48,008 nucleotides of DNA from Chiloscyllium plagiosum (lineage: Eukaryota): NCBI RefSeq assembly GCF_004010195.1, contig NC_057753.1, positions 5,263,505 through 5,311,512 on the forward strand. Reading direction: 5' to 3'. Both the position numbers and the translations under genes were made by a program. Position 1 is the first letter of the stretch; the number at the start of each line of letters is the position of its first letter. The notes under the pieces are model-generated. The model saw only the letters and a program-made list of their open reading frames with translations, was not told where the DNA came from and ran no database searches. Positions 1,419 to 43,798 of the stretch are shown here, in pieces.

Positions 1419-1452
1419 TGACCGCACCACTGACCAATTACTTAAGGGAAGA

Positions 1453-1578
1453 TCACCCAGTGCTTGAGCAGTCCCCTACCTCTTCTGGCACCCAGTTATC
1501 GTATTATTGCTAACTGCTTGCATGTTGTTTTTATTCACCTGCATACTGGCCGGTAAACATTGTCACACGTATAATTAG
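1453..1578 (+). pseudogene. Retroviral env C-terminal (membrane anchor) remnant, paralog of 40567-40998
   Basis: Translates as SPSA*AVPYLFWHPVIVLLLTACMLFLFTCILAGKHCHTYN*, matching DCLLLVLFTGIMAYKLCHMYN* ending at 40998. tgtcacaYgtataattagctt is shared at 1561 and 40981. Confidence 0.65.
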
Positions 1579-1597
1579 CTTCCAACCATTGGACAAC

Positions 1598-10309: not shown

Positions 10310-11003
10310 GAATGAGGAAAGTTTGTCCAGCACGCTAAGATAAAAGGTAGGGAGGAGGGACTGGGGGAGGGGCGTCGGAAATGTGATAGGTGGAAAGAGG
10401 TCAAGGTTGCAGGGGTTGCGGTTGCGCCCTCACCTCCCTCCAAGGCCCCAAAGGAAACTTCCACATCCGCCACAGATTCACCTGCACCTCCACACACATC
10501 ACCTATTGCATCCTCTTCACCCAATGTGGCCTCCTCTATATTGGGGAGACAGGCCGGCTACTTGCGGAGCGTTTCAGAGAACACCTCTGGGACACCCGGA
10601 CCAAACAACCCAACCACCCTGTGGCTCAACATTTCATCTCCCCCTCCCACTCCACCAAGAATATGCAGGTCTTTGGACTCCTCCATCGCCAGACCACAAC
10701 AAAACGACGGTTGGAGGAAGAACGCCTCATCTTCCGCCTAGGAACCCTCCAACCACAAGGGATGAACTCGGATTTCACCAGTTTCCTCATCTCCCCTCCC
10801 CCCAGCCTGTCTCAGTCAAATCCATCAAACTCAGCACCGCCTTCCTAACCTGCAATCTTCTTCCCGACCTCTCCGCCCCCACCCCAGTCTGACCTATCAC
10901 CCTCACCTTGACCTCTTTCCACCTATCACATTTCCGACGCCCCTCCCCCAAGTCCCTCCTCCCTACCTTTTATCTTAGCCTGCTGGACAAACTTTCCTCA
11001 TTC

Positions 11004-11978: not shown

Positions 11979-14487
11979 TCAGTCCACTCTACCTCCACTC
12001 CCAGTGCCGCCCCACAGCCCTGTGGTATTTTCTCAAACAGCTACAGGAGCTGTAACATCTCGTGTGTTTGCTTCCTCCCTCCTCACTATCCAAGGCTGCA
12101 GACACAGCTTCCAGAATGAGGCAGCGATTTACTTGCACTTCAGTCTAGCCTACTGTGTTTGTTGCTGACAATGCAGTCTCATGTCCATTCTGGAGACAAA
12201 AGTGCAGACTGGGTGACTGTTTTGCAGAACACCTACGTTCTGTCGGCAGATATGACCTTGAGGTTCTGGCTGCCTGCGGTTTCAACACTTCACTGTGTTC
12301 ATTGGCTAACCTTTGGCTCCTATTTCTTATAGTTATTCCAACCCTCATTCACAAGAATTTCTAGACTCCCTCAATGGCAGTCAGTTCAAAAAGGTTTCCT
12401 TGGGTGGAAATTGCTGTGCATAAGTCATCTCCTAACAAAAGCAAACAAAGAACTGTGGATGAGAAAATCAGAAACAAAAGTAGAATTTGCTGGAAAAACT
12501 TTCCAGCAGCACCTGTGGAAAGATATCAGAGAACAGCTTCTTCCCTGTTATTATCAGATATTTGAATGGACCGGTTTAACGTTAATATTGATCCCTCTCT
12601 GCATCTTCTCGGCAGCTAAAACTCTGTTTGCTGCACTCTCTTCAGTTACCCTGATGTACTTGTTACAGTACGATCTATCTGTCAAGCAAGTAAGTCAAAC
12701 TTCACTGTACCTTGGTCCATGTAACTGTAATAAATCAGTTAACGGTTTGGGTCCTATCACCCTTCTTCAGAACTGATCGTAGCTGGCACAAATTTCATAT
12801 ATATGCTAAAGGAGGGGTGGATGGAGACGGGAGGAAGAAATGATAGGTGGAGATGGAGCCCAGAGACAGAGAAAAATAGCCCACCCCAACAACATCCACA
12901 TTCAAAGGATTATTAGATTCCATTTCTGCCACTTCTATTGGATTGCCACACCAGATACATATTCCCCTCCCCTCCTTTGTCAACTTCCCACAAGGGGCAT
13001 TTCTTCTGGAACCCCTCAGTCCACTCTACGTCCACTCCCAGTGCCGCCCCACAGCCCTGTGGTATTTTCTCAAACAGCTACAGGAGCTGTAACATCTCGT
13101 GTGTTTGCTTCCTCCCTCCTCACTATCCAAGGCTGCAGACACAGCTTCCAGAATGAGGCAGCGATTTACTTGCACTTCAGTCTAGCCTACTGTGTTTGTT
13201 GCTGACAATGCAGTCTCATGTCCATTCTGGAGACAAAGTGCAGACTGGGTGACTGCTTTGCAGAACACCGACGTTCTCTCAGCAGATATGACCTTGAGGT
13301 TCTGGCTGCCTGCGGTTTCAACACTTCACTGTGTTCATTGGCTAACCTTTGGCTCCTATTTCTTATAGTTATTCCAACCCTCATTCACAAGAATTTCTAG
13401 ACTCCCTCAATGGCAGTCAGTTCAAAAAGGTTTCCTTGGGTGGAAATTGCTGTGTATAAGTCATCTCCTAACAAAAGCAAACAAAGAACTGTGGATGAGA
13501 AAATCAGAAACAAAGTAGAATTTGCTGGAAAAACTTTCCAGCAGCACCTGTGGAAAGATATCAGAGAACAGCTTCTTCCCTGTTATTATCAGATATTTGA
13601 ATGGACCGGTTTAACGTTAATATTGATCCCTCTCTGCATCTTCTCGGCAGCTAAAACTCTGTTTGCTGCACTCTCTTCAGTTACCCTGATGTACTTGTTA
13701 CAGTACGATCTGTCTGTCAAGCAAGTAAGTCAAACTTCACTGTACCTTGGTCCATGTAACTGTAATAAATCAGTTAACGGTTTGGGTCCTATCACCCTTC
13801 TTCAGAACTGATCGTAGCTGGCACAAATTTCATATATATGCTAAAGGAGGGGTGGATGGAGACGGGAGGAAGAAATGATAGGTGGAGATGGAGCCCAGAG
13901 ACAGAGAAAAATAGCCCACCCCAACAACATCCACATTCAAAGGATTATTAGATTCCATTTCTGCCACTTCTATTGGATTGCCACAGCAGATACATATTCC
14001 CCTCCCCTCCTTTGTCAACTTCCCACAAGGGGCATTTCTTCTGGAACCCCTCAGTCCACTCTACGTCCACTCCCAGTGCCGCCCCACAGCCCTGTGGTAT
14101 TTTCTCAAACAGCTACAGGAGCTGTAACATCTCGTGTGTTTGCTTCCTCCCTCCTCACTATCCAAGGCTGCAGACACAGCTTCCAGAATGAGGCAGCGAT
14201 TTACTTGCACTTCAGTCTAGCCTACTGTGTTTGTTGCTGACAATGCAGTCTCATGTCCATTCTGGAGACAAAGTGCAGACTGGGTGACTGTTTTGCAGAA
14301 CACCGACGTTCTGTCGGCAGATATGACCTTGAGGTTCTGGCTACCTGTGGTTTCAACACTTCACTGTGTTCCTTGTCTAACCTTTGGCTCCTATTTCTTA
14401 TAGTTATTCCAAACCCCATTCACAGGAATTTCCAGACTCCCTCACTGGCAGTCAGTTCAAAAAGGTTTCCTTGGGTGGAAGTTGCTG
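11979..14487 (+). repeat. Tandem array, ~1035-bp unit x ~2.4, built from decayed Penelope-like sequence
   Basis: Unit starts tcagtccactctac at 11979, 13016 and 14051. Contains decayed GIY-YIG (CRLGDCFAEH) and a degenerate minus-strand hammerhead at ~12738-12770 and ~13773-13805. Confidence 0.95.
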
Positions 14488-14539
14488 CAGTTTCTAACTG
14501 GGGTCTTGGGGATGGGGGGGCATGTTCCTGTCTCAAGGT

Positions 14540-14812
14540 TCCGCCCTTTGTCCCTTTAAATCCCACCCTCGGTCCTTCCAGCTCCAGCTCCAGCGATGCG
14601 CATGCTTCGCTCTGTAGACCGGTCCCGCCCCTTCGTTGACTCCGATTGGTTGGAGGACCAGCCCGGTGCCACAGTCATCCAGGCCTGCCCCTTCACTCAC
14701 TATTGGTCCGCATCCTGCGTCAATCATTCCCCCCCCCCCCCGCCCGGAGAGGCAGACATGCGCAGCATGATTTGCTCCCTGAACGACTGTGCACATGCGC
14801 GGTGGCCATTTT
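14540..14812 (+). promoter_or_regulatory. CpG-rich candidate promoter of the ZNF gene
   Basis: GC boxes ccgccc (14541, 14625); inverted CCAAT (attgg 14645, 14702); NRF1-like tgcgcatgc (14597) and catgcgc (14757, 14794); YY1-like gccatttt (14805). Local CpG enrichment. Confidence 0.65.
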
Positions 14813-15174: not shown

Positions 15175-15421
15175 AAGGAGAAATGTTTGTCTGAGGGGAA
15201 AGGTTTCAAACATCAGTGTGACTGGAAGAGCACCGAGACACAGACACACCTGAACGAGAGCGTTCCAGTGAACCGACTGTGCAAGGAGCTTTCCTTTTGT
15301 TGCATGACTACAAAAGTAAATTGCACCGTTTAAAGCGGGGCAAAGACGCACATGTGTTTTGTGTCTGGCTCAAGATTTAACTGATCCTTCAGTGTGGACA
15401 GGGCACAAAGACCCTGGCACC
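15175..15421 (+). pseudogene. Decayed C2H2 finger repeats upstream of the ZNF start codon
   Basis: Finger-like remnants with stops and frameshifts: GEMFV*..RFQTSV*LEEHRDT, FQ*TDCARSF, ..RFN*S....HKDPGT, leading into MEKP. Confidence 0.6.
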
Positions 15422-16891
15422 ATGGAGAAACCATGTAAATGTGTGGAGTGCGGGAAAGGATTCAGATTTCCATCCAGGCTGGACGTTCATCGGCGCAAAC
15501 ACACTGGGGAGAAGCCATTTACCTGCTCCACGTGTGAAAAGGGATTTGCACGTTTATGCAGCTTACAGATACACCAGAGAACTCATACTGGCGAGAAATC
15601 ATTCACCTGTGCCAAGTGTGGTAAGGGGTTCGCTCATTTATCCAGTTTACATGTACACCAGAGAACTCACACTGGGGAGAAACCGTTCATCTGTACCAAG
15701 TGCGGTAAGGAGTTTGCTCATTCATCAACTTTACACGTACACCAGAGAATTCACACTGGGGAGAAACCATTCACCTGCTCTGAGTGTGGGAAGGGATTTG
15801 CACAGTCATCAAAGTTATATCGACACCAGAGAACTCACACTGGGGAGAAACCATTCATCTGCTCTGACTGTGGGAAGGGATTCGCTCGGTTATCCACCTT
15901 GCAGGTGCACCAGGGAATACACTCTGAAGAAAAAATGTTCACCTGCTCCAACTGTGAGCAAAGATTTGCTCATTTATCCAGCTTACAGACACACCAGAGA
16001 AGTCACGCTGGGGAGAAATCATTCATCTGCACCACATGTGGTAAGGGGTTCGCTAATTCATCTGGATTGCATGTACATCAGAAAGTTCACGCAGGGGAGA
16101 AACCATTCACCTGCTCTGACTGTGGGAAAGTGTTTGCTCAGTCCTCCAAGTTACGGCAACCCCAGCAAACTCATACTGGAGAAAAACCATTTACCTGCCC
16201 CGATTGCGGGAAGGAATTCACTCAGTTATCCGACTTACATTCACACCAGGAAGCGCACACCGGGGAGAAACCATTCCCTTGCTCTGACTGTGGGAAGGGA
16301 TTCACTGAGTTGTCCACTTTACAGGTGCACCAGAGAATCCACACTGGAGAGAAACCGTTCACCTGCCCTGAGTGCGGGAAGAGATTCTCTCAGTTATCCA
16401 ACTTAAATCGACATCAGAGAACTCACACTGGAGAGAAACCGTTCACGTGCTATGAGTGCGGGAAGAGATTCTCTCAGTTATCCAACTTAAATCAACATCA
16501 GAGAACTCACACAGGAGAAAAGCCATTCATCTGCCCTGAGTGTGGGAAGGGATTCACTCAGTTATCCAATTTACATTCACACCAGGGAGCTCACTCTGGG
16601 AAAAAAACTTTCACCTGCTCTGAGTGTGGGAAGGGGTTTGCTCAGTCGTCCAAGTTATGCGAACACTGGAGAATTCACACTCGGGAGAAACCATTCATCT
16701 GCTCTGACTGTGGGCAGGGATTTGTTCAGGCATCCACCTTACGTGTACACCAGCGAACTCACACAGGAGAAAGACCGTTCACTTGCCTTAAGGGCGGGAA
16801 GAGTTTCACCCAGTTATCCAACTTACAGCAACCCCAGAGGACTGACTGTCAGCTGCGCACTATCAGGCAGGCAAGCTCACATCCAGAGTGA
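15422..16891 (+). CDS. Tandem C2H2 (Kruppel-type) zinc-finger protein, 489 aa, 17 repeats (15 canonical), no KRAB/SCAN/BTB in this ORF
   Basis: Uninterrupted ORF; first ATG in strong context caccATGg; 28-aa CxxC...HxxxH repeats with TGEKP linkers. Finger 9 (H>P) and finger 17 are degenerate. Confidence 0.93.
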   Translation: MEKPCKCVECGKGFRFPSRLDVHRRKHTGEKPFTCSTCEKGFARLCSLQIHQRTHTGEKSFTCAKCGKGFAHLSSLHVHQRTHTGEKPFICTKCGKEFAHSSTLHVHQRIHTGEKPFTCSECGKGFAQSSKLYRHQRTHTGEKPFICSDCGKGFARLSTLQVHQGIHSEEKMFTCSNCEQRFAHLSSLQTHQRSHAGEKSFICTTCGKGFANSSGLHVHQKVHAGEKPFTCSDCGKVFAQSSKLRQPQQTHTGEKPFTCPDCGKEFTQLSDLHSHQEAHTGEKPFPCSDCGKGFTELSTLQVHQRIHTGEKPFTCPECGKRFSQLSNLNRHQRTHTGEKPFTCYECGKRFSQLSNLNQHQRTHTGEKPFICPECGKGFTQLSNLHSHQGAHSGKKTFTCSECGKGFAQSSKLCEHWRIHTREKPFICSDCGQGFVQASTLRVHQRTHTGERPFTCLKGGKSFTQLSNLQQPQRTDCQLRTIRQASSHPE

Positions 16892-28338: not shown

Positions 28339-28694
28339 TAGAGTCATAGAGATGTACAGCACGGAAACAGACCTTTCGATCCAACCCGTCCATGCCAACC
28401 AGATATCCCAACCCAGTCTAGTCCCATCTGCCAGCACCCCACCCATATCCCTCCAAACCCTTTCTATTTATATACCCATCCAAATGTCTCTTAAATGTTG
28501 CAATTGTACCAGCCTCCATCACTTCCTCTGGCAGCTCATTCCATACCCGTACCACCCTCTGTGTGGAAAAAGGTGCCCCTTAGGTCTCTTTTATATCTTT
28601 CCCCTCTCACCCCTCTAGTTCTGGACTCCTCGTCCCCCAGGGAAAAGACTTTGTCTATTTACCCTATCCATGCCCCTCATAATCTTGTAAACCC
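28339..28694 (-). mobile_element. CR1 3' fragment inserted between the PPT and the 3' LTR
   Basis: Reverse tail tagagtcatagagatgtacagcacgg directly abuts the LTR end. Confidence 0.88.
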
Positions 28695-29309
28695 CTCTCC
28701 CCCCGCCTTGGTCATTCCATGACCACACCATAGGATGAGAGAGCATAGATTAGATCGGTCCAATCGAATGAATGTGAGAGGCTGCCATGCACCTTCCTCC
28801 TCCGAGAATGCTGGGGTAGGCAACCGCTCCTCCTCATCTTCATTTGGGCGGAAAATAAGTATTTTCTGGGGGGAGCCGATATTGTCAACAGAAGTTATTA
28901 GCTTGGCAATAATACATTTAACAGTAGCAATGCCAGCAAAGAGACAAGTTAAAATAACACCAACATACATAGCCAGATTTATCAACCAGTTGTAGCATGA
29001 GCCAAAAGCCCAATCTCCCCGTCCAGTGCCTTCTGTCATTTGACTGACGAAGACGCGGATGTTACCTACATGCTTGGTAATGTTCTCGATGAGGTCAGTA
29101 ACCCCCATCATGCATTTGCCCTTTGCTATGGCGCAAACCCCACCCTCTTTGGTGAGTAGGTAGTCGAGGGGGCACCGGTTTTGCTGGGAAAATAGATGTA
29201 ATTCTGAGAGTGTGTGCTTCACTCCTGCCAGGGCCGAGGCAGTCTCGTTGCCCAAGAGGGTATGGCCGCAAATAAGGTAGTTTGCGTTTTGATGGCTAAT
29301 AATTCCTGG
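28677..29309 (-). pseudogene. env: Retroviral env transmembrane subunit remnant (gamma-type)
   Basis: Heptad region, immunosuppressive domain QQNRCPLDYLLTKEGGVC, CX6C loop (CAIAKGKC), anchor WLINLAMYVGVILTCLFAGIATV. Frame stays open upstream to 29309; SU is missing. Confidence 0.88.
28696..28708 (-). other. Polypurine tract
   Basis: Minus strand aaggcgggggaga, between env and the (displaced) 3' LTR. Confidence 0.6.
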
Positions 29310-32928: not shown

Positions 32929-33668
32929 TCATGGCCTGTAAGAAGAACAGGGGTTAATATTTCATTTTGTAATCACTGGTGGATCCTTCCCCTTAAAAGA
33001 AATCATGTTAAATTCCCAAAATGCAAATCAAATTCAAAACAGTCCCAGATCTCAAGCTCCAGGGAACAGATCACAAACATTCAATCCCAAAAAGCAAATG
33101 TGCATTTAACTTTCTGCAAGCTTTCAGCGTTGATTCTCTCTCTCTCTCACTCACTTAGACACACACATGAACATTTTAAGGGTCCGAGGCATTGACATTC
33201 CAAAACAGTCAAAGTTAGGGAGTTTAGCCTCATAAATCCTGGCTGTGGCGCATTGCTGCTTAACCGAGTGTGCGAGAATTGTATCACTGGCCGGCTTTCT
33301 TTTTTAATGCGACAAAAGCAGCAGCCACCCTCTATATTTCACAAACAGAGAACAAACACCAAAACAAACAGGACAAAACCATAACAGACAGACAAGGCAA
33401 AGCAGCAAAGCAAGACAAGCCAAGCTGAACAGGTACAACAGAGAAAATAATCTCGACCTAAACCTTACACTAATCAACAACCCGGCAACAAGACTAATGA
33501 TTTCTGCAAAACATTCTCGACATTCTAAAACCCTGACAGTCTCTTTGTAATATATCGCGATACTTCTTTGTTATGTCTTTCACAGAATAATTTGAAAATC
33601 AATTTAGACAACGCCAATTTGACCAAATTTGAGTCCTCGACTCATTTGAAGTACATCCTTATGCAGAC

Positions 33669-33751
33669 CCCTGACCTGTTAGTGGGAGTCCCTGACTCTA
33701 TTTGGATCCTGATCTGCGGATCCCTAACCTGTTAGTGGGAGTCCCCGACTC
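33669..33751 (-). repeat. 30-bp direct repeat in the ERV leader
   Basis: ccctgacctgttagtgggagtccctgactc (33669-33698) and ccctaacctgttagtgggagtccccgactc (33722-33751). Confidence 0.85.
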
Positions 33752-33964
33752 GTTTTTAATCTTTTCTGATGAATTCTTACCAAGGCCGATCCTTCTCAGG
33801 CTGGACTGAGATAATAAGCAGCGAGGAGTCGAGTCAACTGCGACTTGAATGCGAGAAAAACCAAACAGAGAAAATACTCACATTTGGCCGGCCTTCCTCA
33901 ACACTCAATAGTGGAGGACTCAAGGCTGTTACACTGCTGCCCACAGTCCGTCAGTCTGTGCCGA

Positions 33965-33982
33965 GTCCGAGTCACAGCATCA
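33965..33982 (-). other. Primer-binding site, tRNA-His-like
   Basis: Minus strand TGATGCTGTGACTCGGAC vs tRNA-His complement TGGTGCCGTGACTCGGAT (15/18), 2 nt from the 5' LTR. Confidence 0.8.
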
Positions 33983-33984
33983 GA

Positions 33985-34826
33985 TAAGGATCTGGACCCG
34001 TCTGGGTTGGGGGTAGGGGTGGGGGGTCTCTCTATTCCGTGATCGGTCAATAACACTCACAATCAGTCTGGTTCTTTAAAACTTTATTTCTTCACACGGC
34101 CGGGCACAGATCGTCCAGAAACACAGTGGTCGTGTACATCCGTATTCCTCGAAGGAGCTGCACGCTTGACTTAAAACATAGACGTTTTTATATTTTTTCT
34201 CAAAGCAAGGTACAGGCCATGATCGTATAGTACATTCAGACAATTACCAGTCAATTTACGATATAGCTTTATTTGACCATTACTTGGTTCAGTGATTAGA
34301 TTAGATTAGATTACTTACAGTGTGGAAACAGGCCCTTCGGCCCAAGTCCACACCGACCCGCCGAAGCGTAACCCACCCAGACCCATTCTCCTACATTTAC
34401 CCCTTCACCTAACACTACGGGCAATTTAGCATGGCCAATTCACCTAACCCACACATTTTTGGACTGTGGGAGGAAACCCACGCAGACACAGGGAGAATGT
34501 GCAAACTCCACACAGAGAGTCGCCTGAGGCGGGAATTGAACCCGGGTCTCTGGCGCTGTGAGGCAGCAGTCCTAACCAACTTTATTTGCTAATCTCTATT
34601 GAAGCAGACTGTGGTTAGTTAATTATGCAACTATAACAGAATTAAAAGCCATTTTATGCAGCTTTTAGCAGAATTGTCAATTTGCAGCCTGGGGGAAGCC
34701 ATTTTGTCATATTATTTGCATTGAGGAGCCATTTTATTGCTGCTGAAGTTATTAAGAGCTTGTGTTAAGTGGTTGTTCCTGACAACAACTAGTTACCTCA
34801 GCCTGTATTCAGGTTTCAGATCCTCA
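33985..34826 (-). repeat. 5' LTR of the ERV
   Basis: Minus strand starts TGAGGATCTG; TATAAAA (34186-34192) precedes AATAAA (34083-34088) in U3-R-U5 order; interrupted by a SINE. Confidence 0.88.
34295..34578 (-). mobile_element. HE1-type SINE in the 5' LTR
   Basis: (attag)n tail followed by reverse SINE body; an adjacent LTR segment is missing relative to the 3' LTR. Confidence 0.9.
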
Positions 34827-35644: not shown

Positions 35645-36455
35645 ATAGAACATAGAACATTTCAGCGCAGTACAGGCCCTTCGGCCCTCGATGTTGCGCC
35701 GACCTGTCATACCAACCTGAAGCCCATCTAACCTACACTATTCCATGTACGTCCATATATTTGTCCAATGACGACTCAAATGCACTTAAACTTGGCGAAT
35801 CTACTACCGTTGCAGGCAAAGCATTCCATACCCTTACTACTCTCGGAGTAAAGAAACTACCTCTGACATCTGTCCTATATCTATCACCCCTCAATTTAAA
35901 GCTATGCCCCCTCGTGTTTGCCGTCACCATACTTGGAAAANNNNNNNNNNNNNNNNNNNNNNNNNNNNNNNNNNNNNNNNNNNNNNNNNNNNNNNNNNNN
36001 NNNNNNNNNNNNNNNNNNNNNNNNNNNNNNNNNNNNNNNNNNNNNNNNNNNNNNNNNNNNNNNNNNNNNNNNNNNNNNNNNNNNNNNNNNNNNNNNNNNN
36101 NNNNNNNNNNNNNNNNNNNNNNNNNNNNNNNNNNNNNNNNNNNNNNNNNNNNNNNNNNNNNNNNNNNNNNNNNNNNNNNNNNNNNNNNNNNNNNNNNNNN
36201 NNNNNNNNNNNNNNNNNNNNNNNNNCCCTCAATTTAAAGCTATGCCCCCTTGTGCTCACTGTCACCATACTTGGAAAAAGGCTCTCCCTGTCCACCCCAT
36301 CTAACCCTCTGATTATCTTGTATGTCTCTATTAAGTCACCTCTCAACCTTCTTCTCTCCAACGAAAACAGCCTCAAGTCCCTCAGCCTTTCCTCGTAAGA
36401 CCTTCGCTCCATACCAGGCAACATCCTAGTAAATCTCCTCTGCGCCCTTTCCAAA
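35645..36455 (-). mobile_element. CR1 3' fragment spanning the assembly gap
   Basis: tagaacatagaaca tail; LERAQRRFTRMLP...RRLRGDLIETYKI. Confidence 0.9.
35941..36225. other. Assembly gap (285 N)
   Basis: Run of N; the flanks overlap by ~53 bp of similar but non-identical CR1 sequence. Confidence 0.99.
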
Positions 36456-36699
36456 GTATTCTAAATTCCTCTTTCTTTTGTTTGTATTTTAACTATAGTG
36501 TTGAAATAAACGGTGTTTTCCTTCTTGTCGGGTGGTTGCATCACATCTGGAACACGCACTTCCCATCTACCTTCAAAATAAGACAAGTCAGGGTCTCGGC
36601 TATGCTCTTATTGAGGGGGTCTGGTCCGGTCCGTAGCACTGGAAAGCCGTCGTGTTTAACCCAAAGACGCAGACAGTAATAGAAAAGGAAGTTGTGGTT

Positions 36700-37600
36700 G
36701 GCTTCAGTCAGATGGTGGTAGGAGCAGCTGTAGTTGTTGCCCTCGAAGCGGAACCAAGGGTGGTGCACGTTTTCCCGCATTCCCCAGGCTGTTGCCAATG
36801 CTTTAGTGGTTTGGATGTCACCATTGGATGATAGGGAAAAGCCTAATGAGGGCAACAGCTATGGGAGGAGATCTGGCAAGACGCTCAACGACACTCATAT
36901 CACTGTGTACCGCGTCGATGACCAAACACACCTCTGAACTAACTACACATAATTAGAACAGTTGATAGCCTTACAAAGGATGCGCACCGCGTGGCTAACT
37001 GCAGAAGAAGAGCTCCGACAGTTTGACATGTGGGTGCGTACCAAGTCTGGAAGTTTGAGTATCAGGTACCAAACAATGGGCTGCAGCGCAAAGGATCCCA
37101 CTGAGGCATGCCATCACTCAGGAAGTCGTGGAGCAATTCAAAACTTGCCAAAAGATGAACAGTTCCACTTGAAGAGTGGTTAGATCTTGCAATTGGGCTA
37201 TACTGGACCGTTGTCCTTGCAACAAACCTTTCGACATATTTTGACCAGGCTGAGTACCAAATCGGTAACCTGGTAATCATACACCCCTGTGTGAAAGGAA
37301 CCTGAGCCAGGACAGTAAAAGGATTGCATTTCCTGATCTTACCATATGGGGGAGCCAGTGGAAATACAAACTGACAATGGGCCATGTTCTGCAGCGTGAA
37401 CAGCGCAGTATGTGATAATGGGATCCAGTGGGTGTAGCACAGTTCCTGTTACCCACACGCTGCAGGGTTATTGGAACATATCAATGGACTTGTGAGGCAA
37501 ACTGTTGACACCCTCGTAGACGCTCAGGGTGGGTTGTGAGTCTTACCCCCAGGTAGAATGCGATCTAGACAACCGCTCCCAACCTGGGTACAATGACGAG
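36700..37600 (+). pseudogene. pol: Decayed retroviral pol (RNase H and integrase), ERV-L/class III-like
   Basis: AVANALVVW...HITVYRVD (RNase H); GEPVEIQTDNGP (from 37349) and GIQWV*HSSCYPHAAGLLEHINGLVRQ (37420-37500) match the integrase D..E region. Confidence 0.8.
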
Positions 37601-37639
37601 TGATACCCAGATGACCATAAGCGGATGACAGAGTTTACA

Positions 37640-37944
37640 TTAGATTAGATTTAGATTACATTACAGTGTGGAAACAGGCCCTTCAGCCCAACAAGTCCAC
37701 ACCGACCAGCAACCCACCCATACCCCTACATTTACCCCTTACCTACAGGCAATTTAGCATGGCCAATTCACCTGACCTGCACATCTTTGGACTGTGGGAG
37801 GAAACTGGAGCATCCGGAGGAAACCCACGCAGACAAGGGGAGAACGTGCAAACTCCACACAGTCAGTCACCTGAGGCGGGAATTGAACCCGGGTCTCTGG
37901 CGCTGTGAGGCAGCAGTGCTAACCACTGGGCCACCGTGCCACCC
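37640..37944 (-). mobile_element. HE1-type SINE
   Basis: Full-length reverse copy with (ttaga)n tail. Confidence 0.92.
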
Positions 37945-38470
37945 ACGAGTTGTCTGTCTGTAATGGGTACAAGGTATTGGATCCACTATCCCAGCCAGCC
38001 AGTCATACCTGGGGACAGGGAGATATTTATCGGATATTATTACAGGGTAAAGATATCCCTGATGGGGTGGGGGGGGGGGGGAGAGAAGAAAAAACAAAGG
38101 TGGGGTAAGCATGAATATGGTATGGTGAATCGGATATTAAACTAACAACAAAACTCCCTTCTGTTGCAGCAAACTGATGACGTGGTAACTGCTGCAGTGC
38201 CTGTGTTTTCTCCTGCCTTGAATGACACGAGATCTACCATCACCTGCACAATCTCACCACAGGATACGGTCTCGAGGATGGAGTCGTCATAATAATAACT
38301 GTAGGCAAAATAATTTTCATTGTTCACTGGGTGAAGAGAGTACCTTGTTGAACATTACATGCACGTGTAACAACCCACGTACTCCCATCTCCAGGGAACA
38401 GGAGCTTAGTCATCTTTATCCCACATGGCTACTGTTCACTAAAAAACAACTACTGTTACTCTGTGACATA

Positions 38471-38593
38471 GTTAAAAATCACACACGACACCAGGTTATA
38501 GTCCCACAGGTTCATCTGGAAGGACACGCTTTCATAGCACTGTTCCTTCATGAGGTAGCTAGTGGAGTAAAGTCATAGGGCACAGAATTTATG
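38471..38593 (-). mobile_element. Short fragment of a third, probably Penelope-like, family
   Basis: aaaaatcacac..caccaggttatagtcc; degenerate minus-strand hammerhead (ctcatga-aggaacagtgctat-gaaag); related to 47030-47122 in the opposite orientation. Confidence 0.55.
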
Positions 38594-38796
38594 GCACCTC
38601 CACATCATGACTGTATGACGTGGAATCGCACCGTACCCCTCGATTACTGTGCAACATTAGATGGCAATAACTACACCTCACTGTTGCCCTGAAATAAGAC
38701 TATCAGAAGGCAGTGTCTAAAGGAGGTCTTGTCTAACAGTAGCTCACATGAAAATTGGTGTAATATCTTGCTTTTAAATGATGATGGCTAATATTC

Positions 38797-39118
38797 CATA
38801 GAATCCCTGCAGTGTGGAAACAGATCCATACTGACCCTCTGAAGAGTAACCCACCCAGACCCATTCCCCTGCCATATTATCCTACATTTACCCCTGACTA
38901 ATGCACCTTGAATATTATGGGCTGTTTAGGCCAGCCAATTCACCCTAACCTGCACATCTTTGGACTGTGGGAGGAAACCGAAGCACCCAGAGGAAACCCA
39001 CGCAAACACTGGGAGAAGGATGTGCAAACTCCACACAGACAGTCGTCCGAGGTTGGAAACAAACCCGGGTCCCTGGCCCTATGAAGCAGTATCACTAACC
39101 ACAGCCACCGTGCCAGCC
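38797..39118 (-). mobile_element. HE1-type SINE
   Basis: Reverse copy catagaatccctgcagtgtgg...gccaccgtgcc. Confidence 0.9.
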
Positions 39119-39348
39119 AAAGCTAGCATCTTATGTCAAGATGTTAGAGAGATATGGGACATGGATTCTGGTGTGTGAGCTTACAGTGGACTGAGTGGAA
39201 GGGCCCATCCAAAACATATAGATACCCCATCTTCACTTGTATGATGGATATATTCCAGTGGCAAAACAAAATATGGTTTTGACTGTGACAGTGGAAATAA
39301 CTAATGGAAAAAAAAAATTACCCTTCTATTGCTGTCCTATTAACATTA

Positions 39349-40998
39349 CAGAGGTGTGGTAGAAGCAATGTACTCTGTTTCATTCTAGATGGAGCAGGGA
39401 CAGAGACAGGTGCATTAAATTCTAATGATATTGCAACTTTGCGAAATGGGATTGTTAAAGTTGGGCAACTATCAAATTAGCTGCTGTATGGACCAAGCCA
39501 TTAGCACATAGAGATTTAGCAGATTGGTCTCTGACCAACATGGTTTGGAGGTTTGCTGATAGCCTATCTAGGGCCTCACACTTAGGCGGATCTTAATGCA
39601 GAAGTCATTTGAACATAGTGCAATTTGTTAGAGGGATTTGACACATGAACTAACAACCTCGTTGCTATCCAAATTTCTGTGCTGTTGAAAACGGTTATTT
39701 AGTCTCACACATGCTAACTTAATGCTTAGAAGTGATGCATTAAAATCTAATTGTAACCCCATAGTATGACATGCTACTATTTTGACTTTAAATAGTAAAC
39801 AGTGATAAATATGGTGCAAGTTTATCGCCCCATCTGTTGGGAGGTATGTTGTGGGAACCTGTATTTATGGGAAATGGCTGGATGATAACAATCAAACCCA
39901 CAGGTGGGTGGTTGTGAATAGCCTGAAGGCCTAGTGTGCCTCTTCCACACCCCTGCCTTCGAACCATGTAGATTGTAGTCTAGCAGGGCTACCTGCACAT
40001 GAAGGAAATTACTGTCAGTGATACAGCCATTCACACAACTGGTCCTGTCCACAGATGTGTAACTAGTATTCATACAGTATATCTTAATGATGAGAGAGAG
40101 AGAGATAGAAAATCATCCACTCATCAACCTTTATAGTGACAAAAGTTATGTTCTCCATGATACTGTTGGAAATAAACATACAGAGTTAAAGAACAGCAGC
40201 TGGTAACTGTGAACTGCTGCACTACAGTTACAACATTTCAAAGACACATGGACAGGTACGTGAATAGGAAAGGTTGAGAGGGATATGGGCTAAACACAAG
40301 CAAGCAGGACTAGTTTAGTTTGAGAAACTTGGTCAGCGTGGACGAGTTGGCTTGAAAGGTCTGTTTCCATGCTCTACGACTCTAGGCACCTCTATATAGG
40401 ACGTTTGATAAACTACAGGTGTTCCTTGCACATTATAAACACGCTTCACTGTCGTTTGATAGCAGTGTACCATGATGTATTGCAGCGAGAATCTGCCATC
40501 ACTTACAGCAGTGATCAATTAATTCATAAAGTGGACAATTTAGGAATTCTTACCATATGTAATTAGTGGGATGTATTTAACGGGTGGTCACCAATGCTTC
40601 AGCAGCTTTTATTGGCACCAGCGTATTTTTTTTAGATTAGATTCGATTCCCTACAGTGTGGAAACAGGCCCTTGGCCCAACAAGTCCACACCGATCCTCT
40701 GAAGAGCAACCCACCCAGACCATTTCCCTCTGACTAATGCACCCAACACTGTGGGCAATCCACCCTAACCTGCACATCTTTGGACTGTGGGAGAAAACCG
40801 GAGCATCTGGAGGAAACTCACACAACCACAAGGAGAATGTGCAAACTCCACACAGACAGTCGCCCGAGGCTGGAATTGAAACTGGGACCCTGGTGCTGTG
40901 AGGCAGCAGTGCTAACCACTGAGCCACCCTCAGACTGTTTGCTTCTTGTTTTATTTACTGGTATAATGGCTTATAAACTTTGTCACATGTATAATTAG
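39349..40998 (+). pseudogene. Decayed env-like gene of the class III-like retrovirus
   Basis: RCGRS-NVLCFILDGAGTETGALNSNDIATLRNG (cleavage site / fusion-peptide-like), Cys-rich middle, *WDVFNGWSP (40564-40593), hydrophobic anchor ending at 40998. Interrupted by a CR1 tail (~40215-40385) and a SINE. Confidence 0.6.
40632..40928 (-). mobile_element. HE1-type SINE
   Basis: Reverse copy splitting the env anchor region. Confidence 0.92.
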
Positions 40999-41003
40999 CT
41001 TGC

Positions 41004-41390
41004 AAAGGTTGGGATGTCGGGTATAGATCCCAAAACGATACCTCCAAGCCAGATCATTAGGGTTAAATTGGACATGGCAATAAGCAGACGGAGAGTGGAG
41101 AAATTTGTGAGAACAGGCTTTCATTTTGCAAGAGAGTGGCCTCAGCGTGAGAACAGGCCATTTTGCCGTGACCCAGAGACTTGGTTTTGACATGTTTGTG
41201 ACTGCCAAGCATTAAGGCAATTCAGCACATAACATCAAGTCCAGTACCTTATTAATATTGGGGACTTTTCCCAGTCCATTGGACTTCACCATCAGACTGG
41301 GTGCCCTGGAAATTGAGATCGATTTTGAAGTGCCAGCCATCACCAGGATTCTTGATAAGCAGAAGGACGCGAGACTCACTTGTTTTAACA
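41004..41390 (+). repeat. PPT-like tract and start of a putative 3' LTR
   Basis: aaaggttggga followed by TG at 41015, just after the env stop; the end of the LTR could not be fixed. Confidence 0.4.
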
Positions 41391-41581
41391 TATCTAAAGT
41401 AGTTTTAAGTTAATAATTTTCTTTAAATATATCTGAAGTACTTAAGAGATATTAAGTAATCTTAGCTAATATATTTGCATTATATCGAAGCGCACATGTT
41501 CTCCCTAAAATCAGACAAGACTGAATGTCAGTGCATGCAGGGATACAATGGCTGAGTGGTCGATGGAATATTCAGTGCACA

Positions 41582-43798
41582 TGGAGGTAGGGGCTGGCAA
41601 ATGTTCATTCTAAAGAAGTCCCACCCGAAATAGTGACCATTCATTTGACTTTCTCGTCATGAGTGATCTACTGTGCAATTCCCCACGTTTGGTTTTCCAT
41701 TTCAATTTGTCCAGGGCTGCCTCAGTATTCAGGCTATGTTTCAGTTTGCATGACACTGCAGTTTGGTCTCAGCTGGAACATCGTGTCTGGTTCTGGGGGC
41801 CTGCCTTTAAGAAGGATGTGAAGGATTCAAGAGAGTCATCGAGTGATGCAGCACAGGAAGAGACCCTTTGGGTCATTGTGTCCGAGTCAGTCATCAACTA
41901 CCTATCTATTCTAATCGCTTTTCCCAGCACTTGGTGCGTGGTCAGTCATCAAAATATTTTTAACTTGTTGTGATGGTTCCCGTCTCTCCGCAGATACCTA
42001 CCACTCTCTGGCTGAAACAATTTATTCTTAAATACCCTCTAATGCTACTGCCCTGTCTCTTACATCTATGCTCCCTTGTTATTGATCCTGTTACTAATGA
42101 GGAAAAGTTCTTCCTGTCATTCCTATGTCTGCCTCTCATAATTTTGTAGATCTCAATCAGGTCCTCCCTCAACCTTTTCTCCTTCAAAGAGAACACCGGA
42201 ACATACTCTGCCTCTGTTCGCAGTTAAGCTTCTCCATCCTCGGAACATCCCAGTGAGTCTCCTCTGTACCCTCTCCAGAGTAGTCACAATCCTTCTACGA
42301 TGCAGTGACCAGAATCGCACACAGTACTCCAGCTGTGGCTTGAGTAATGTCATATAAAGCTCCACCACAACCTCCCTGCTCTTGTATTCAATGCCTCGAC
42401 AAATAGAGGCAAGTAAATTATGTGCCGACTTAACCACCTGTTCTGTTTGGAGTGCAGATTTGTTTTAAACTTTCACAGGATGTGGGTGACACCAGCGAGA
42501 CTGACATTTAGTGACCATCACTCTATGTCGGGACTCCTACAGTGCTGTTAAGTTGGGAGTTCCAGGATTTCACCTAGCGACAATGAAGGAATGGTTGATA
42601 GAGTTCCAAGTCAGGATGGCATGTGATGATGGCGATGTTCGGTTTGAGGTTTCTGCCTGAAAACGTTTCCCCTAACGTCCAATAAAAGGTATTTCCAACA
42701 GATAATCCATCTCCGTCCGGGACAGAAATTCAGTAGAGTTCGCTGTACATAAATCCACCCCCATCTCAGCCCCTACAATGGAGCTTCCAAAGTCCATCAC
42801 TATCAGAAATGCAGAAGCGCTGAATACAGTTTGTTCTGTGTTAATTCTCCTGTACCCGTATTGTGAGGAGGACATGAGCAATCTGCAAAGGTATAAACAT
42901 TGGTGGGCAAAAACATGGCAGATGCATTTTCTTGCAGCAAAGTGTATGGTCATGCTCAGTAGTAGGAAGAATCAAAAGGCAGGCTGTTATTTATATGGAA
43001 ACTCCAAAAGAAGAGCACATGGAGGGGTCTTGTGTATGGAACACAGAACAAATTATCATGCAGGTGCAGCAAGTAATTAAGAAGGCAAATAAAATTTGGG
43101 TCTTTATCGCGAGTTGATGTGAGTTTAAAAATAGAAAAGTTTTCCTTCAACTGTACAAGGTGTTGCTGAGACTATACCTGCAGTACTGTATACAGTTATT
43201 TTTAAAAAAGTGATATACTGGCATTAGAAATAGTTCAAAAGCTGGGATGGTTCCGAGGATGAAGGGGCTGACTTATCGAGAATGGCTAAAGAGGTTAGGT
43301 CTCAGTTCTGAAGAAATGTCCTACCAGACTCAAAATACTAACTCTTTATCTCTTAAGATGCTTTCACACTTGTTGAGTTGCTCTAGCATTTTCTATGTTT
43401 TTTCTAGGCTTTTATTAATTAGTGTTAACAACAATGGGCTGATCTTATTGAAGCATACAAGTTTCTAAGAGGTGGGGGTTGACGGGATAGATGTTGAGAT
43501 AATCCCACTCCTGGAGATCTATGAAACATGGATACACTTCCACAGAATAAAGGGACTCTCACCTAAAACTGAGAAGGGAAGGAAATTTTCCTGTGAGGGT
43601 ACTGAATTCTGGAATTCTCTACCCCACAGAACTAGAGAGGTTACATTACTGAAAGTAATTAAACAGGATGTATATAGATTTTTGAAATATCAGGCTGTTG
43701 AAGCAATGAGGAGTTGTCACAAAAGGCAGTAGAGGCCTGGGGCAGATTAGCCATGATCTTTCAAAAAAGCTGGAGAGGCTTGAGGAGATGAATGGCCT
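41582..43798 (+). repeat. Segmental duplication copy 2
   Basis: Same order and orientation of old repeat fragments as 8605-11975, without the Penelope element (10220-11127) and SINE (11279-11602). Confidence 0.85.

Follow-up and report, generated by a model that had tools for sequence, protein, structure and literature searches.

We analyzed a 48,008-nt stretch of contig NC_057753.1 of the shark Chiloscyllium plagiosum (the window; all coordinates are positions within it). An original prediction, made from the sequence alone, had placed a cryptic class III-like retrovirus with a non-canonical envelope at 36700-41015. The locus is the decayed 3' half of an old endogenous retrovirus (ERV) and is dead. 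It contains remnants of RNase H, integrase and an envelope (Env) gene, and the env is probably a member of the family already described from birds as Ovex1 ORF3, GGLTR11 and TERV, new in a shark and badly decayed. The features of the locus and of a second, partial copy are as follows.

36226-36472, minus strand: 3' tail of a long interspersed element (LINE), recognized as a window-internal repeat with a LINE-type minus-strand open reading frame (ORF); 5' limit of the recognizable provirus.
36637-36990, plus strand: frameshifted RNase H remnant, placed by a stork RNase H fragment, by-eye likeness to CrocERV17 and motifs.
37030-37633, plus strand: integrase remnant with a decayed zinc finger and a catalytic core in which the first Asp position is not kept.
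37634-37945, plus strand: nested repeat 1, resembling a short interspersed element (SINE), ~80% match to several copies in the window.
38141-38169, plus strand: candidate splice acceptor for env, read from the sequence, with a branch-point-like CTAAC, a stretch of pyrimidines and a CAG.
38177-39360, plus strand: candidate signal peptide and surface subunit (SU)-like region, Cys-rich and with N-glycosylation sequons, assigned from its position.
38789-39119, plus strand: nested SINE-like repeat 2, from window-internal repeat comparison.
39391-39468, plus strand: fusion-peptide-like block at the start of the transmembrane subunit (TM), assigned by a family block match.
39469-40611, plus strand: remnant of the TM (F1-like) ectodomain, ending in the membrane-proximal motifs of the family.
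~40176-40384, plus strand: nested repeat 3, LINE-tail- or SINE-like, from window-internal repeat comparison.
40632-40928, plus strand: nested SINE-like repeat 4, which interrupts the membrane anchor and is lacking from the second env tail.
40929-40998, plus strand: second half of the membrane anchor and the env stop codon (40996-40998), whose position is shared by the second copy.
41004-41017, plus strand: stretch resembling a polypurine tract, followed by TGT, where the 3' long terminal repeat (LTR) may start, read from the sequence.
1435-1585, plus strand: second env tail (membrane-proximal motif, anchor, stop), an independent-looking copy.

All six motifs quoted in the original prediction were found on the plus strand and in the claimed order of RNase H (36788 and 36899), integrase (37364 and 37450) and env-like region (39391 and 40567); they are spread over two different frames. 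Stop codons number 15-18 per frame in the ~345 pol codons and 35-51 per frame in the ~670 unmasked env codons. A present coding function was rejected, as no frame is open at the locus; the locus has none. The pol-env remnant had thus been recognized correctly, but its limits changed: RNase H begins at ~36637 (a weak assignment), and env probably at ~38177 instead of 39349.

To compare the env remnant with known envelopes we relied on the Env of an avian Ovex1 locus in which pol and env are both intact (L023, 6469-12814, minus strand). This locus lies on a JGI metagenome contig, presumably host DNA, and was the one useful result among 46 matches in a pattern scan of metagenome contigs. Its Env has 82 homologues, and all named ones are avian. 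A profile was built from 56 of them, excluding 21 near-redundant or partial Ovex1 sequences, 3 fused to pol or to a LINE, and 2 short sequences. The frameshift-aware alignment called for beforehand was applied to the TM half. Aligned end to end with the 56-member profile, this half scored -47.6, compared with -80.8 ± 9.4 for dinucleotide shuffles, and this score was reached by none of 400 shuffles and at none of 143 other window positions. The reversed bird profile scored lower under all three penalty sets. In an ungapped scan of ~95,900 six-frame positions, three of nine family blocks ranked first in the locus and in the right order (39397, 40453 and 40564). The anchor block had its best position at the second copy, and for the remaining five the best position was not where it was expected. 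The fusion-peptide block was rank 1 of 95,874 positions with 14.3 bits (hhalign E 0.023), and a piece of the TM ectodomain remnant gave an hhalign E of 0.0047. When segment 40385-40631 was scored in local mode, none of 60 shuffles reached its score; for the last env segment 56 of 60 did so. On visual comparison, chicken Ovex1 ORF3, GGLTR11 and TERV share these fusion-peptide and membrane-proximal motifs. We consider homology to the Ovex1/GGLTR11 family to be well supported at the two ends of TM and weak between them. Note that two Logan/ENA proteins (P0224 and P0222) are divergent members of the env family, 38-42% identical to Ovex1 Env, and may be non-avian.

The overall layout of the remnant is similar to that of the bird proteins. 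An ATG at 38177 is followed by a hydrophobic stretch, and one frame holds 6 N-glycosylation sequons at 38351-38735. From ATG to stop, minus the repeats, the env spans ~662 codons, compared with 694 residues in an intact bird family member (P0178); from the fusion peptide to the membrane-proximal motif we counted by hand ~326 codons versus 373 in P0178. Thus, the fusion-peptide block, the membrane-proximal blocks and the anchor match Ovex1 ORF3, GGLTR11 and TERV in order, the splice acceptor just upstream of the start codon and the length are alike, and neither side has an immunosuppressive domain (ISD) or a CX6CC motif. In contrast to the bird elements, the shark locus is dead, its TM is ~47 codons shorter, its SU has no detectable similarity and its pol is not Ovex1-like.

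The second copy of the env tail that had been predicted is real, with an extent of ~1435-1585 rather than 1453-1578. It matches 40934-41005 with 79% identity over 73 nt. Its match to 40574-40630 (44 of 57 nt identical) had a score reached by none of 1000 shuffles, whereas a control stretch gave 468 of 1000. The second copy therefore matches both sides of repeat 4, indicating that repeat 4 was a later insertion into the membrane anchor. The env stop codon is common to both copies. Against the bird env profile the second copy scored 27.4 bits in local mode (0 of 60 shuffles), hhalign gave an E of 0.00027, and the TM anchor block of the bird family ranked 1 of 95,820 positions there. The single domain reported by hmmsearch with the bird env profile on the window frames was also in this copy.

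The absence of an ISD and of CX6CC, noticed beforehand, was borne out: no CX6CC, CX7CC or QNxxxLD occurs in the three repeat-masked plus frames of 38150-41010, where decay could also hide such motifs. CX6CC or QNxxxLD was found in 0 of 3 window frames and in 0 of the 56 bird family members. A gamma-type env was rejected, as the frames have no ISD/CX6CC pattern and the Pfam TLV_coat and Ebola-like heptad-repeat (HR) models miss the locus. The expectation of a TM unlike the gamma or beta type was therefore right in that the env is non-gamma, but it is no new type, matching instead the avian Ovex1-ORF3/GGLTR11/TERV family. The proteins of this family have been described as being without CWLC, immunosuppressive motif and CX6CC, and whether the Ovex1-type family represents an envelope was considered uncertain in 2009 (PMC2717909).

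We next considered the fold of the family, using an AlphaFold2 model of P0178 made with 57 sequences (pLDDT 71.6, pTM 0.42). In a Foldseek search of the PDB, the top matches were paramyxovirus and pneumovirus fusion (F) proteins, with an E of 1.8e-11 for human parainfluenza virus 3 (hPIV3) F. VIA-align, a re-examination of Foldseek's own matches, superposed the model on postfusion Nipah F with a Z of 11.9 and a root-mean-square deviation of 5.4 over 285 residues, and F proteins were found in all 50 matches listed. In BFVD, the Env of walleye epidermal hyperplasia virus (E 4e-12), F proteins and feline foamy virus Env (E 1.3e-4) were matched. The BFVD entry structurally closest to the model, by a wide margin, was a 928-residue viral protein (A0A384ZVF2; E 3.4e-23). 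Atlas neighbours of the bird Env at 0.91-0.93 carry PF00523, PF12259 and PF07253. Sequence comparison gave little by itself: the bird env profile had no match in the PDB, PF00523 was not among the best 25 of 30 Pfam families for the 57 members, and PF12259 appeared in 1 member (E 0.03). A single-sequence fold of the L023 Env reached a pLDDT of 33.6 and was not used. Thus, the bird member P0178 is predicted to fold like paramyxovirus F, in residues 188-556. Compared with paramyxovirus and pneumovirus F (PF00523), identity is ~10-13%, the bird Env has an extra ~160-residue N-terminal domain, and PF00523 is missing from the Pfam families listed for the 57 members. By analogy with the bird member, we infer that the shark protein itself would have had an F-like fold.

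The pol remnant looks closest to bird and crocodilian elements. A 55-residue stork integrase piece (gene model P0241) aligned with 37229-37381, broken up over three frame pieces, with a score of 26.5 bits that none of 200 shuffles reached (null maximum 25.5), and the homology of this stretch to the stork element thus appears statistically supported. The same gene model carries a YIDD-type reverse transcriptase (RT), of class III type, and a member of the bird env family. As judged by eye, CrocERV17 Pol (supplement of PMC4299795) resembles the window pol, RNase H included, and CrocERV17 env has a helix motif like that of the bird env family. By hand, we measured 58 residues from the first catalytic position of the integrase (not Asp here) to the second Asp, and 101 nt, spanning a frameshift, from the second Asp to Glu (108 expected). 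The first spacing is 58 in ERV-L, XtERV-S and foamy virus and 56 in murine leukemia virus (MLV) (PMC8278194 Table 2), so that, being also a foamy-virus trait, it is not class III-specific. An HX4HX28CX2C zinc finger fits roughly in spacing, with one of four ligand positions kept (by hand). The register of this finger rests on an assumed likeness to ERV-L, and the window pol may likewise resemble HERV-L motifs.

From these features we infer a class III placement of the pol. Here the original prediction of a class III-like retrovirus with an env stands insofar as there is a pol-env remnant with class III (ERV3)-like integrase features, but its basis consists of the 55-residue integrase, the spacing and the by-eye likeness. 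The proposed relationship to ERV-L/S did not hold, as the nearest relatives look like avian and crocodilian ERV3 without dUTPase and not like mammalian ERV-L or HERV-S. The class III-type integrase spacing and the TGT at the candidate LTR start are alike in ERV-L, HERV-S and XtERV-S. In contrast to the shark element, mammalian ERV-L is without env and has a dUTPase; membership in mammalian ERV-L was rejected, since an env remnant is present and the frames after the integrase gave no dUTPase match (Pfam, of low sensitivity on decayed DNA). Other pol searches were uninformative. The best match of the pol frame in a PDB sequence search was an integrase with an E of 0.29, a word-index protein search with this frame confirmed 0 of 555 candidates, and tblastn with all fetched proteins gave no true match in the pol region.

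On the 5' side, an assembly gap (N run) at 35941-36225 adjoins the LINE tail. Stork protease-RT and gag gave background scores only in a frameshift-aware scan of both window strands (best RT scores of 21-24.5 bits, elsewhere), so the 5' half of the provirus is not within the window. On the 3' side, the predicted polypurine-like tract followed by TG was confirmed, with 9 purines in the 11 positions 41004-41014 and TGT at 41015-41017. A 5'-TGT is conserved in class III ERVs (PMC8278194). No AATAAA, ATTAAA or TATAA is present in 41011-41600, and thus a 3' LTR beginning at this TGT is suggested only, as a candidate. The window holds no second copy of the 41011-41600 stretch; no LTRs were demonstrated in it, and LTR ends, a target-site duplication (TSD) and gag were not identifiable. 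An Rfam scan returned 0 matches. Ten protein matches to the nested SINE were looked up, from at least 150; six were named, five of them from sharks, which is indirect evidence for a probable shark host. Translations of repeat 4 match shark gene-model proteins.

Taken together, we consider it probable that the locus is the long-dead 3' half of a provirus of the same kind as the ERV3 (class III) elements of birds and crocodilians that carry env and lack a dUTPase, here in a shark. In its active state, the element would have expressed Env by way of a spliced RNA, with the acceptor at ~38169 and the start codon at 38177. Env would have been a type I glycoprotein of ~660 residues, presumably cut into SU and TM, with the fusion peptide at the new N-terminus of TM after cleavage. 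Membrane fusion may have followed the paramyxovirus-F route, with a long N-terminal helix, beta and Cys-rich domains, a C-terminal helix and the anchor, and would have proceeded without a gamma-type ISD and CX6CC disulfide. After fixation, the provirus would have decayed and acquired the four nested repeats.

Several results speak against this interpretation. On the pol side, the stork RNase H piece aligned at the expected place (36637-36747), with a score of 16.5 bits that 26 of 200 shuffles reached and that is not significant. P0241 is a predicted gene model in which pieces of RT, integrase and env are fused. The window lacks an RT, which precludes a standard retroviral classification, and the integrase references scored for the class III call were those of the stork element and Ovex1. 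On the env side, six of the nine blocks were not first-ranked in the locus, and the z-score of the TM half fell from 4.2 to 3.4 and 2.1 as gap and frameshift costs were relaxed. The middle TM segment alone was marginal against shuffles end to end (13 of 300) and weak in local mode (42 of 60; hhalign E 0.41), and the SU segment at 38 kb had no significant match to the bird profile (30 of 60 shuffles). The hhalign probabilities of the env pieces were low (2-42%). Two Arg residues lie upstream of the fusion-peptide block in the same frame, where a canonical furin site is not preserved. Finally, the folded protein was the bird member, at a pTM of 0.42, the shark sequence being too broken.

Among the alternatives, an env of the F-like family combined with a pol of another lineage outside classes I and II (ERV4, snakehead retrovirus (SnRV)-like, Ovex1-like or lokiretrovirus) is unlikely, yet it survives best. 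Just 55 integrase residues were scored against an ERV3-type reference, and class III is not monophyletic in PMC4299795. SnRV-like ERVs occur in the elephant shark, whose ERVs group with SnRV and epsilonretroviruses (PMC4422223), and F-like env genes are carried by lokiretroviruses (PMC7947760, PMC9040795). However, Ovex1 RNase H and integrase queries were not significant at the locus (scores reached by 156, 29, 16 and 94 of 200 shuffles), and Ovex1 integrase did not align here. Furthermore, by eye, the lokiretrovirus integrases in the supplement of PMC7947760 differ in their core and are set apart from RNase H by a long spacer, while CrocERV17 resembles the window pol. That the env instead represents a separate F-type or unrelated lineage, with short convergent motifs accounting for its likeness to the bird family, is distinctly improbable. 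The weak or missing signal in the middle of TM and in SU would fit such a view, as would the fact that E values from tblastn with the bird Ovex1 Env were no better than 0.93-2.1 where the three matches lie; in contrast, three blocks rank first window-wide in the right order and at about the right spacing, and an independent second copy matches the anchor region of the family. A chance juxtaposition of pol and env from two different insertions, which the SINE between integrase core and env might suggest, is very unlikely in view of the common strand, the canonical order and spacing, the splice-acceptor-like site at the junction, and a best pol match from a bird gene model that carries the same env family.

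The interpretation as an env-bearing ERV3-kind provirus is in line with published elements. Crocodilians and other species have ERV3 groups with an env gene (PMC4299795), and absence of env is therefore not a trait of the class. ENS-3 of chicken probably belongs to class III, and Ovex1 envelopes occur in a few of its proviruses (PMC3482500). The env-bearing class III element of the original prediction is thus no novelty in kind; both env-bearing ERV3 lineages and the combination of class III pol with Ovex1 env were already in print in these two papers. Like avian ERV3, aviervIII and ENS-3 and like CrocERV16/17, the shark element has a probable class III-type pol followed by env, with no positional room for a dUTPase before env, and its integrase stretch matches a stork element of the avian kind. 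Differing from avian ERV3 and CrocERV16/17, it resides in a cartilaginous fish and its RT, gag, primer-binding site, LTRs and TSD are missing, so that membership is not proven. Clade III accounts for the majority of ERV RT matches in cartilaginous fish (2843 versus 2018, 6 genomes; PMC11089739). With lokiretroviruses the element would share the likeness of Env to paramyxovirus and pneumovirus F; in contrast to lokiretroviruses, which are sister to canonical retroviruses, its pol looks ERV3-like. Errantiviruses also have an F-like env (PMC13524379), and PMC12583693 cites a common origin of F and some retroviral Env. We found no published report of a shark member of the Ovex1-type env family in a literature search that did not extend to most subscription papers or to Repbase. 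Similarly, no published report of an F fold for the Ovex1-type env was found, nor a paper naming both 'Ovex1' and 'paramyxo'. Such envelopes may already be treated by Calcraft et al. 2024 (cited in PMC12583693). None of the locus motifs was found in the supplement of PMC8278194.

Single-frame library searches (Pfam, PDB, word-index, HMMER and Atlas) gave no significant match for the locus. Pfam, with 16 single-frame readings, returned nothing for it at E up to 1 save one domain of unknown function (0.14); a PDB sequence search with the second piece gave nothing, and a word-index protein search with the two env tails confirmed 0 of 112 candidates. When one env frame was searched with HMMER against 1.84 billion proteins, the 150 best of 175 matches all had their highest-scoring stretch in or at the nested repeats. 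A 59-residue open stretch had a best Atlas score of 0.77, which was uninformative. In viral-contig scans, 0 of 25 candidates were confirmed, 8 + 1 matches were not env-like on translation, and another scan had 0 matches; a further match was an integrase of unknown kind and was not used. A genome-contig scan gave 9 matches, none of them retroviral.

The window contains additional elements distinct from the one studied here. On the minus strand, 28677-29309 holds a gamma-type TM fragment that is open over 210 codons and includes an ISD-like stretch. Pfam matched it weakly to the Ebola-like HR1-HR2 model (E 0.00055) and to TLV_coat (E 0.0084), and the fragment is reminiscent of the filovirus-like ectodomains of cartilaginous-fish ERVs (PMC11521997). 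A minus-strand region at ~33280-34250 is LTR- or leader-like by eye, with TATA-like and AATAAA-like sites and a short direct repeat at ~33670-33750, and the element to which this TM belongs may have its 5' end there. At 15320-16891 (plus strand), an ORF of 523 codons contains 84-nt repeats and encodes a C2H2 zinc-finger array, and near-identical tandem units of ~1035 nt at ~11979-14549 (98-100% over blocks) represent a recent duplication or an assembly artefact. The ORF at 10390-10848 (plus strand) resembles what we take to be the GIY-YIG endonuclease end of a Penelope-like element.

How far back the F-type env reaches is a more tentative matter. It is conceivable, though on balance doubtful, that such an env was ancestral to the ERV3/class III branch and was kept from cartilaginous fish through crocodilians to birds, with gamma-type env captured later by HERV-S and XtERV-S, and env lost from ERV-L. 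Gamma-type env is carried by HERV-S, XtERV-S and ERV-S.1-Dbi (PMC4724089, PMC8278194, bioRxiv 2024.03.17.585361). If this ancestral scenario were true, F-like Env would be no peculiarity of lokiretroviruses, and Ovex1 ORF3, a conserved gene of the chicken, would represent a paramyxovirus-F-like fusogen that has been co-opted.

In conclusion, our result qualifies the statement that the credible envs of class III, such as that of HERV-S, are class I (PMC4724089). The predicted paramyxovirus-F fold of the Ovex1-type family bears on the origin of retroviral Env, for which four scenarios were left open (PMC7947760) and which is better addressed on intact natural relatives than on the decayed shark copy. 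The value of the dead fragment is that of a pointer, suggesting that the avian Ovex1-type env lineage also infected sharks.

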